NCBI RefSeq assembly: GCF_041886205.1
Contig: NZ_CP169029.1
Direction: 5' to 3' (one strand)
DNA length: 64,000 nucleotides
Origin: Escherichia coli
GTDB lineage: Bacteria; Pseudomonadota; Gammaproteobacteria; Enterobacterales; Enterobacteriaceae
Each line of letters starts with the position of its first letter. Position 1 is the first letter of the stretch. The notes under the pieces were generated by a model. The model did not search any database. It saw nothing but the letters and a program-made list of their open reading frames with translations, and was not told the DNA's origin. The position numbers and the translations under genes are program-made. Positions 36,853-37,935 of the stretch are shown in pieces.

Positions 36853-37935
36853 ATGAAAAAATTAACAGTGGCAATTTCTGCTGTAGCTGCATCAGTACTG
36901 ATGGCGATGTCTGCTCAGGCAGCTGAAATTTATAATAAAGACAGTAACAAGCTGGATCTGTACGGGAAAGTTAATGCTAAGCACTACTTCTCCTCTAATG
37001 ATGCAGATGATGGTGATACTACTTATGCCCGTCTTGGCTTCAAAGGTGAAACCCAAATCAACGATCAACTGACTGGTTTCGGTCAGTGGGAATATGAATT
37101 CAAAGGCAACCGCGCTGAATCTCAAGGTTCCTCCAAAGATAAAACCCGTCTTGCCTTCGCTGGCCTGAAATTCGGTGACTACGGCTCCATCGATTATGGC
37201 CGTAACTACGGTGTAGCATACGATATTGGTGCATGGACCGACGTTCTGCCAGAATTCGGTGGCGATACCTGGACCCAAACAGATGTATTCATGACTGGTC
37301 GCACCACAGGTGTTGCAACTTATCGTAACAATGACTTCTTTGGTCTGGTTGATGGTCTGAACTTTGCTGCTCAGTATCAGGGTAAAAATGACCGCACTGA
37401 CGTAACTGAAGCTAATGGTGATGGTTTCGGTTTCTCCACTACTTATGAGTATGAAGGATTCGGTGTAGGTGCAACCTATGCTAAATCTGACCGCACTAAT
37501 AATCAGGTTATCTACGGTAACAACAGCCTGAATGCATCTGGTCAAAATGCTGAAGTATGGGCAGCTGGTCTGAAATATGATGCGAACAACATCTATCTGG
37601 CTACCACCTATTCTGAAACCCAGAACATGACTGTTTTTGGTAATAACCATATTGCCAACAAAGCACAAAACTTCGAAGTAGTTGCACAATATCAGTTCGA
37701 CTTCGGTCTGCGTCCGTCCGTTGCTTACCTGCAATCTAAAGGAAAAGACTTGGGTGCGTGGGGTGATCAGGACCTGGTTGAATATATTGATGTAGGTGCA
37801 ACCTATTACTTCAACAAAAATATGTCCACTTTTGTTGATTACAAAATCAACCTGATTGATAAGAGCGATTTCACGAAAGCATCTGGCGTTGCTACCGATG
37901 ATATCGTTGCTGTAGGTATGGTTTACCAGTTCTAA
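36853..37935 (+). CDS. nmpC: OmpC/OmpF-family general porin, prophage-encoded (NmpC-like)
   Basis: signal peptide [23 protein letters not shown], porin beta-barrel ending ..VGMVYQF; uninterrupted. Confidence 0.85.

Follow-up and report, generated by a model that had tools for sequence, protein, structure and literature searches.

An intact NmpC/Lc/OmpD-group porin gene in a decayed lambdoid prophage of Escherichia coli

A stretch of 64,000 nt from an Escherichia coli genome (contig NZ_CP169029.1; the whole stretch is hereafter called the window) contains, in a defective lambdoid prophage, an intact gene for a porin of the NmpC/Lc/OmpD group. We consider it very probable that this gene is an autonomous moron cassette, that it is expressed, and that its product would partly replace the porins of the host. 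In terms of function, this is most likely a lysogenic-conversion porin, which would add a diffusion channel and, through the 3' UTR of its gene, would lower OmpC and OmpF. The features that define the cassette and its immediate neighbours are collected in Table 1.

Table 1. Features of the porin cassette and of the flanking phage genes (positions in the window)
Feature	Position	Strand	Remarks
rzpD/rzoD spanins	35092..35556	-	rzoD embedded at 35151..35336
rrrD endolysin	35553..36050	-	premature TAG at 35676..35678 (Q125*)
essD holin	36050..36265	-	first gene of the lysis cassette
Late-strand intrinsic terminator hairpin	36405..36426	-	between the porin upstream region and the holin; far boundary of the cassette
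Distal CRP site (CTGTGTGACGAAGTAACCACT)	36430..36450	+	exact match to J02580 misc_binding 1067..1087
AT-rich porin upstream region	36486..36852	+	26-38% GC; homology to K-12
Proximal CRP site	36725..36745	+	centre 118 nt before the ATG; identical to J02580 feature
Porin CDS	36853..37935	+	360 aa and stop (TAA), 1083 nt
Signal peptide	36853..36921	+	23 residues; boundary set by the PA-2 lc annotation and by where the mature chains of solved porins begin in the alignment
Mature porin	36922..37932	+	337 aa, ending YQF
Porin 3' UTR	37936..38098	+	homologous to the K-12/PA-2 ipeX region; series of hairpins
Porin intrinsic terminator	38073..38090	+	followed by a T-run; from a terminator scan
quuD	38124..38507	-	Q-type late antiterminator, 127 aa; convergent with the porin

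An intact gene for a general porin

The earlier note had described a complete OmpC/OmpF-family porin with a signal peptide, and this description holds over the 360 codons, the 23-residue signal and an end-to-end match to the Porin_1 family. In the six-frame list of open reading frames, the plus strand of the porin locus is occupied by a single open frame (36793..37935), and the 1083-nt porin ORF within it has no internal stops. The ATG at 36853 is a sensible start, with AAAGGG 7 nt upstream and the beginning of a typical signal peptide immediately after it; it is also the start used in RefSeq for identical copies and in the PA-2 lc record, where it is accompanied by sig_peptide and mat_peptide features. 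The ORF is not a chance frame, because its 1083 nt are 100% identical to annotated genes in many genomes, and the protein is identical to WP_000737275.1, a RefSeq entry that many genomes list as intact.

The match to Pfam PF00267 (Porin_1) extends over residues 29-360 of the protein and positions 1-337 of the 337 in the profile (E 3.1e-153). Likewise, in phmmer searches the full mature length aligns with about 48 distinct sequences of solved porins (E 1e-108 to 1e-137), which include OmpK37, OmpC, OmpK36, PhoE and OmpF (among them chains 2J1N, 2OMF-type and 1PHO). A cleavable Sec signal is predicted, and the predicted mature N-terminus, AEIYNKD, fits the AE(I/V)YNKD of crystallised porins. Alignment with K-12 OmpF and OmpC indicates conservation of the loop-3 motif PEFGG and of D113/E117 opposite K16/R42/R82/R132 (OmpF numbering), and Y106, G119, G120 and D121, in the same numbering, are also identical to both proteins; the C-terminal Phe, a residue required for outer-membrane assembly, is present as well (...VGMVYQF). 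In an AlphaFold2 model, the confidence of which is moderate (mean pLDDT 74, pTM 0.73), the barrel has 16 strands, and Foldseek comparisons of this predicted structure with the PDB retrieve OmpK36, OmpC, PhoE and OmpF at TM-scores of 0.85-0.90 (E ~1e-45). The porin has all the sequence hallmarks of a functional general porin. Its predicted fold and its pore-lining residues are like those of OmpC, OmpF and PhoE of E. coli, from which it differs in locus and regulation.

The porin is 91.4% identical to K-12 NmpC, once IS5 is removed, and the alignment with Salmonella OmpD (362 aa) that the earlier note had proposed gave 80% identity over the full length. Identity to K-12 OmpC is 63.9% and to K-12 OmpF 62%, and PhoE also falls within the 62-64% range. 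Judged by these comparisons, the porin belongs among the general diffusion porins to the NmpC/Lc/OmpD group and is not ompC.

In K-12, nmpC occupies the same place in prophage DLP12 (qsr') as the porin gene here, between quuD and essD and in the same orientation, and the signal peptide and first 148 residues of its product are identical to those of our porin. However, the K-12 gene carries the annotation of a pseudogene whose two fragments flank IS5B, with the split 58 nt before the stop, which bears out the interruption by IS5 mentioned in the earlier note, whereas the gene in the window is intact: its alignment with K-12 nmpC, with IS5 removed, contains neither a frameshift nor an IS remnant. 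Full-length alignments of the protein with NmpC, Lc, OmpD, OmpC and OmpF stay collinear and in frame throughout, and two loop indels (3 + 2 aa) are the only ones. The protein has 360 aa against the 365 aa of K-12 NmpC, the deletions being of 3 aa in predicted loop L4 and of 2 aa in predicted loop L5.

A mosaic allele and its distribution

Differences from K-12 are unevenly distributed along the gene, with 2 in the first ~360 nt and ~135, including the two in-frame indels, in the remaining ~740 nt. At the protein level, 36 alignment columns differ from K-12 NmpC, and the predicted external loops L3-L8, which account for 31% of the mature porin, hold 27 of them; the loop boundaries are drawn from the same AlphaFold2 model, in which loop 3 has a pLDDT below 50. 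Half of the departures from K-12 NmpC (18 of 36) match Salmonella OmpD. The designation NmpC-like given in the earlier note is accurate as to overall identity, but the allele is not of the 365-aa type of K-12 and PA-2; as read from these alignments, it is a 360-aa mosaic with an NmpC-type 5' third and with predicted loop regions that are partly OmpD-like. Such a concentration of differences in the loops is the pattern expected of a surface antigen and phage receptor that diversifies by recombination.

PA-2 is the phage from which lc was first cloned, whereas the copy in the window is in a degraded prophage. The 2.8-kb record of PA-2 lc (protein 2; GenBank J02580) is collinear with positions 35363..38161 of the window at 93% identity and has the same signal peptide as the porin here, but PA-2 Lc is a 365-aa allele, essentially of the K-12 type, and differs from our porin in the same loop regions. 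The signal peptide of Salmonella OmpD, in turn, is only 38% identical to that of our porin, and OmpD is a chromosomal major porin of Salmonella, not a moron located between Q and S.

Intact copies of the gene appear to be common, not exceptional. The 1083-nt gene is 100% identical over its full length in all 30 complete E. coli genomes among the matches listed, and 341 records match it at 99% identity or more. A copy covering at least 80% of the query was found in 2502 of 5426 complete genomes, a count that takes in K-12-type copies split by IS5, the first piece of which covers ~95%. At least 1000 contigs encode the exact protein, variously named 'porin OmpD', 'outer membrane porin protein LC' or 'porin OmpC', and clustering at 90% identity places it in a group of 2741 sequences. 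Phages PhiR34_1 and PhiR68_2 likewise encode it unchanged in their genome records, and close variants are found in about 40 other lambdoid phages. One genome contains an IS1 inside the porin gene. Additionally, the 434B isolate of phage 434 (OL657227.1) carries at 2822..5118 an IS5-interrupted nmpC, annotated as 'IS5 insertion after codon 346' and within a 'region of 434 nonhomology'; this segment looks like a piece of qsr' from K-12 DLP12 gained by recombination during laboratory propagation.

The cassette and its prophage

The prophage is inserted between ybhC and ybhB, that is, in the lambda attachment region (attLambda). Positions 13000-60999 of the window are 99.97-99.98% identical to E. 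coli wlxctx60 (NZ_AP045833), one extra IS aside, and the two porin genes differ by one base, which is synonymous. As deduced from the annotation of this near-identical genome, the prophage is badly decayed, with no annotated repressor, head or terminase genes and with only partial O, P, J and lom. The window contains two further lesions, an IS3-family element in ybcN and a nonsense codon in rrrD; the latter results from a single G-to-A change (plus strand, position 35678) with respect to NZ_AP045833, where rrrD is intact. Because of this nonsense codon, the lysis cassette opposite the porin gene is probably non-functional in this strain.

The porin genes of K-12 DLP12, of strains 600468 and wlxctx60 and of PA-2 are placed likewise, with Q on one side, the S/R/Rz lysis genes on the other, and all of these on the other strand. 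The resemblance to DLP12 pointed out in the earlier note, with the porin flanked by Q and the holin and oriented against them, thus extends to gene order and orientation but not to the element itself, since DLP12 is at argU in K-12 and the prophage in the window is a decayed remnant at attLambda. The product of quuD matches the Q proteins of PhiR34_1 and PhiR68_2 at 100% identity and those of Stx phages at 78-81%.

Several other features of this prophage deserve mention in their own right. The IS3-family element in ybcN (39900..41206), which we take to be IS629/IS1203-like, is absent from the nearest genome, and PGAP annotates in it an IS3 family transposase together with an AL1L pseudoknot. 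The orfB of the element is broken into two frames (40275..40664 and 40675..41166); its best matches in other genomes are shorter by 1 nt, and a 1-nt indel has thus probably frameshifted the transposase. Directly downstream of the Rz genes, on the minus strand, are trkG, for a Trk potassium transporter (33497..34972), and a ParB/YnaK-like ORF (32568..33359), a cargo known from the Rac prophage of K-12. Rac-type cargo is here joined to a DLP12-type late region at attLambda, an arrangement also found in several other genomes. Finally, emrE (multidrug efflux; 41814..42200, minus strand) is located next to ren, as in DLP12, and represents a host-benefit cargo that has been kept.

Over the 600 nt upstream of the porin gene, identity to the corresponding stretch before K-12 nmpC is 98%, and both 21-nt CRP features annotated in the PA-2 lc record recur unchanged here as putative sites. 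A consensus scan of the plus strand upstream of the porin retrieved no sigma-70 promoter, and the porin promoter is therefore placed only by homology to nmpC and lc. Position 36582 has three states, being C in the window, A in NZ_AP045833 and T in K-12; it falls ~270 nt before the porin ATG, in a short inverted repeat (CCAGC...GCTGG) that pairs perfectly only in the version of the window.

On the other side of the gene, the 188 nt from the porin stop to the Q stop share ~98% identity with what follows nmpC in K-12. This region is exceptionally structured, with a minimum free energy of -61 kcal/mol for 37936..38100 (z = -9.07 against shuffled sequences) and with hairpins such as those at 37950..37984 and 37986..38005. 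We take the stretch after the porin gene to be ipeX, reportedly the RNA of Castillo-Keller et al. 2006. This equivalence is based on the published description (PMC12197685, PMC10690425), in which ipeX arises within the porin transcript, from the promoter of the phage porin, and controls OmpC, although it is reported to have no complementarity to ompC. A search of 35900..38700 against Rfam (E <= 1) retrieved no family for the porin 3' UTR, and ipeX appears to be absent from Rfam, even though it is a described regulatory RNA. A sub-threshold near-match to the Rfam family Trp_leader was discarded, as it merely reflects the minus-strand terminator hairpin between the porin upstream region and the holin.

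Comparison with phages lacking the porin allowed the boundaries of the cassette to be placed. The 83 nt at 36403..36485, which include this terminator hairpin, are 77% identical to a hairpin found directly after Q in Stx2 phage II, and the homologous hairpin element borders other, unrelated opposite-strand cargo in phages SfII and cdtI. These alignments suggest that morons in reverse orientation have been inserted repeatedly at the slot immediately following Q. Because the hairpin element borders Q or other cargo in the relatives, the porin unit, of roughly 36486..38123, looks like a self-contained moron insertion in this recurrent cargo slot. A candidate for the late promoter pR' has a perfect TATAAT at 36621..36616 (minus strand) and a weak -35; against this candidate, homology to Stx2 phage II places the terminator hairpin after Q and before the pR' of that phage.

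Proposed function and significance

By analogy with what is described for NmpC and Lc, the porin gene would have in the lysogen a promoter of its own, linked to CRP and responsive to temperature, and would be transcribed from it whether or not the late genes of the phage are; its product would be exported and assembled by BAM into trimers, forming a non-specific channel for small hydrophilic solutes. The ipeX 3' UTR, as part of the porin transcript, would lower OmpC and OmpF post-transcriptionally, as published work on this RNA suggests. The phage porin would then partly replace the host porins, which would change permeability and remove the OmpC receptor of related phages. OmpC is the receptor of PA-2, and replacement of OmpC by Lc would therefore protect the lysogen from superinfection.

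Two other readings of the gene itself can be set aside with near certainty. That the porin is the chromosomal ompC, or an extra copy of it, might be thought from PGAP, which names identical copies 'ompC: porin OmpC', and from the NCBIfam 'porin OmpC' model, on which the porin scores 518 against a cut-off of 484. However, that model defines a subfamily and not an equivalog; the scores with the PhoE and OmpF equivalogs (NF007544 and NF007446) are, respectively, 506.4 against a cut-off of 599 and 484.2 against 583. Identity to K-12 OmpC is lower than to NmpC or OmpD, and the gene is in a prophage at attLambda, whereas K-12 ompC adjoins micF; on identity and locus together we reject this assignment. 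It is hardly any more credible that the gene is a pseudogene with a subtle defect, such as a frameshift, an IS scar or a truncated end. There are precedents for inactivation in the IS5-disrupted copies of K-12 and 434B, in the genome with IS1 and in the nonsense codon of the neighbouring rrrD, but the alignments with NmpC, Lc, OmpD, OmpC and OmpF are collinear and in frame except for the two loop indels, the Pfam match runs end to end and WP_000737275.1 is annotated as intact, so that at the sequence level a hidden frameshift or IS scar is rejected.

It is rather unlikely, in our estimation, that the gene is intact but silent, being repressed at the transcriptional or post-transcriptional level (by H-NS on the AT-rich upstream region or by small RNAs such as RybB), and that in ordinary conditions it adds nothing to the outer membrane. 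The upstream region, with 26-30% GC and lacking a consensus promoter, would agree with silence, as would the decay of the surrounding prophage; to judge from the title of Prilipov et al. 1998, nmpC is reportedly 'quiescent' in E. coli B. The nmpC mRNA is, besides, a target of RybB (PMC3333887, which is also a source on the role of ipeX), and the porin ORF contains at +14..+20 a 7-nt match to the RybB seed, CAGUGGC. This match is consistent with the literature, and we do not count it as evidence: pairing energies to the 5' end of the porin were not clearly better than those of shuffled sequences (8/200 for RybB and 19/200 for MicC), and full-length duplex energies with small RNAs were discarded because they ignore intramolecular folding. 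Against silence, NmpC is highly expressed in strain AW1.7, and both nmpC copies of the uropathogenic strain CFT073, which are related and intact, are preferentially expressed at 37 °C, as mRNA and as protein (PMC12890032). Moreover, the ORF, the CRP sites, the 3' UTR and the terminator are preserved while neighbouring phage genes have nonsense, frameshift and IS lesions, and the sole difference in the ORF from the nearest genome is synonymous. Expression of the porin from an autonomous cassette remains, then, our preferred interpretation. We find it improbable, in turn, that selection keeps this allele intact in a dying prophage for a loop-altered specificity of phage reception or exclusion, as compared with Lc and NmpC, with antisense read-through acting as an off switch coupled to induction. 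Because the cassette is placed between Q and the hairpin that directly follows Q in relatives lacking the porin, transcription reading through from the early operon would cross ipeX and the porin gene in antisense.

The earlier note had suggested that an uninterrupted copy could affect outer-membrane permeability or phage-receptor properties, and such effects of NmpC and Lc are documented in the literature. The porin is most probably a textbook lysogenic-conversion gene, its allele is widespread, and its finding opens no new question and is useful for annotation. The gene is better named as nmpC/lc-type, with the RefSeq name 'ompC' understood as a subfamily label and not as a statement of orthology. 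In addition to this point, our analysis contributes the intact ipeX 3' UTR, the loop-concentrated and partly OmpD-like mosaic and the boundaries of the cassette as deduced from porin-less relatives. For the bacterium, an extra porin, if expressed, alters the passage of nutrients and beta-lactams across the outer membrane, as well as the docking of phages, colicins and antibodies, and ipeX can lower the OmpC and OmpF of the host; these effects are established for NmpC, Lc and OmpD. The outer-membrane phenotypes of this strain would thus not be predictable from ompC and ompF alone.
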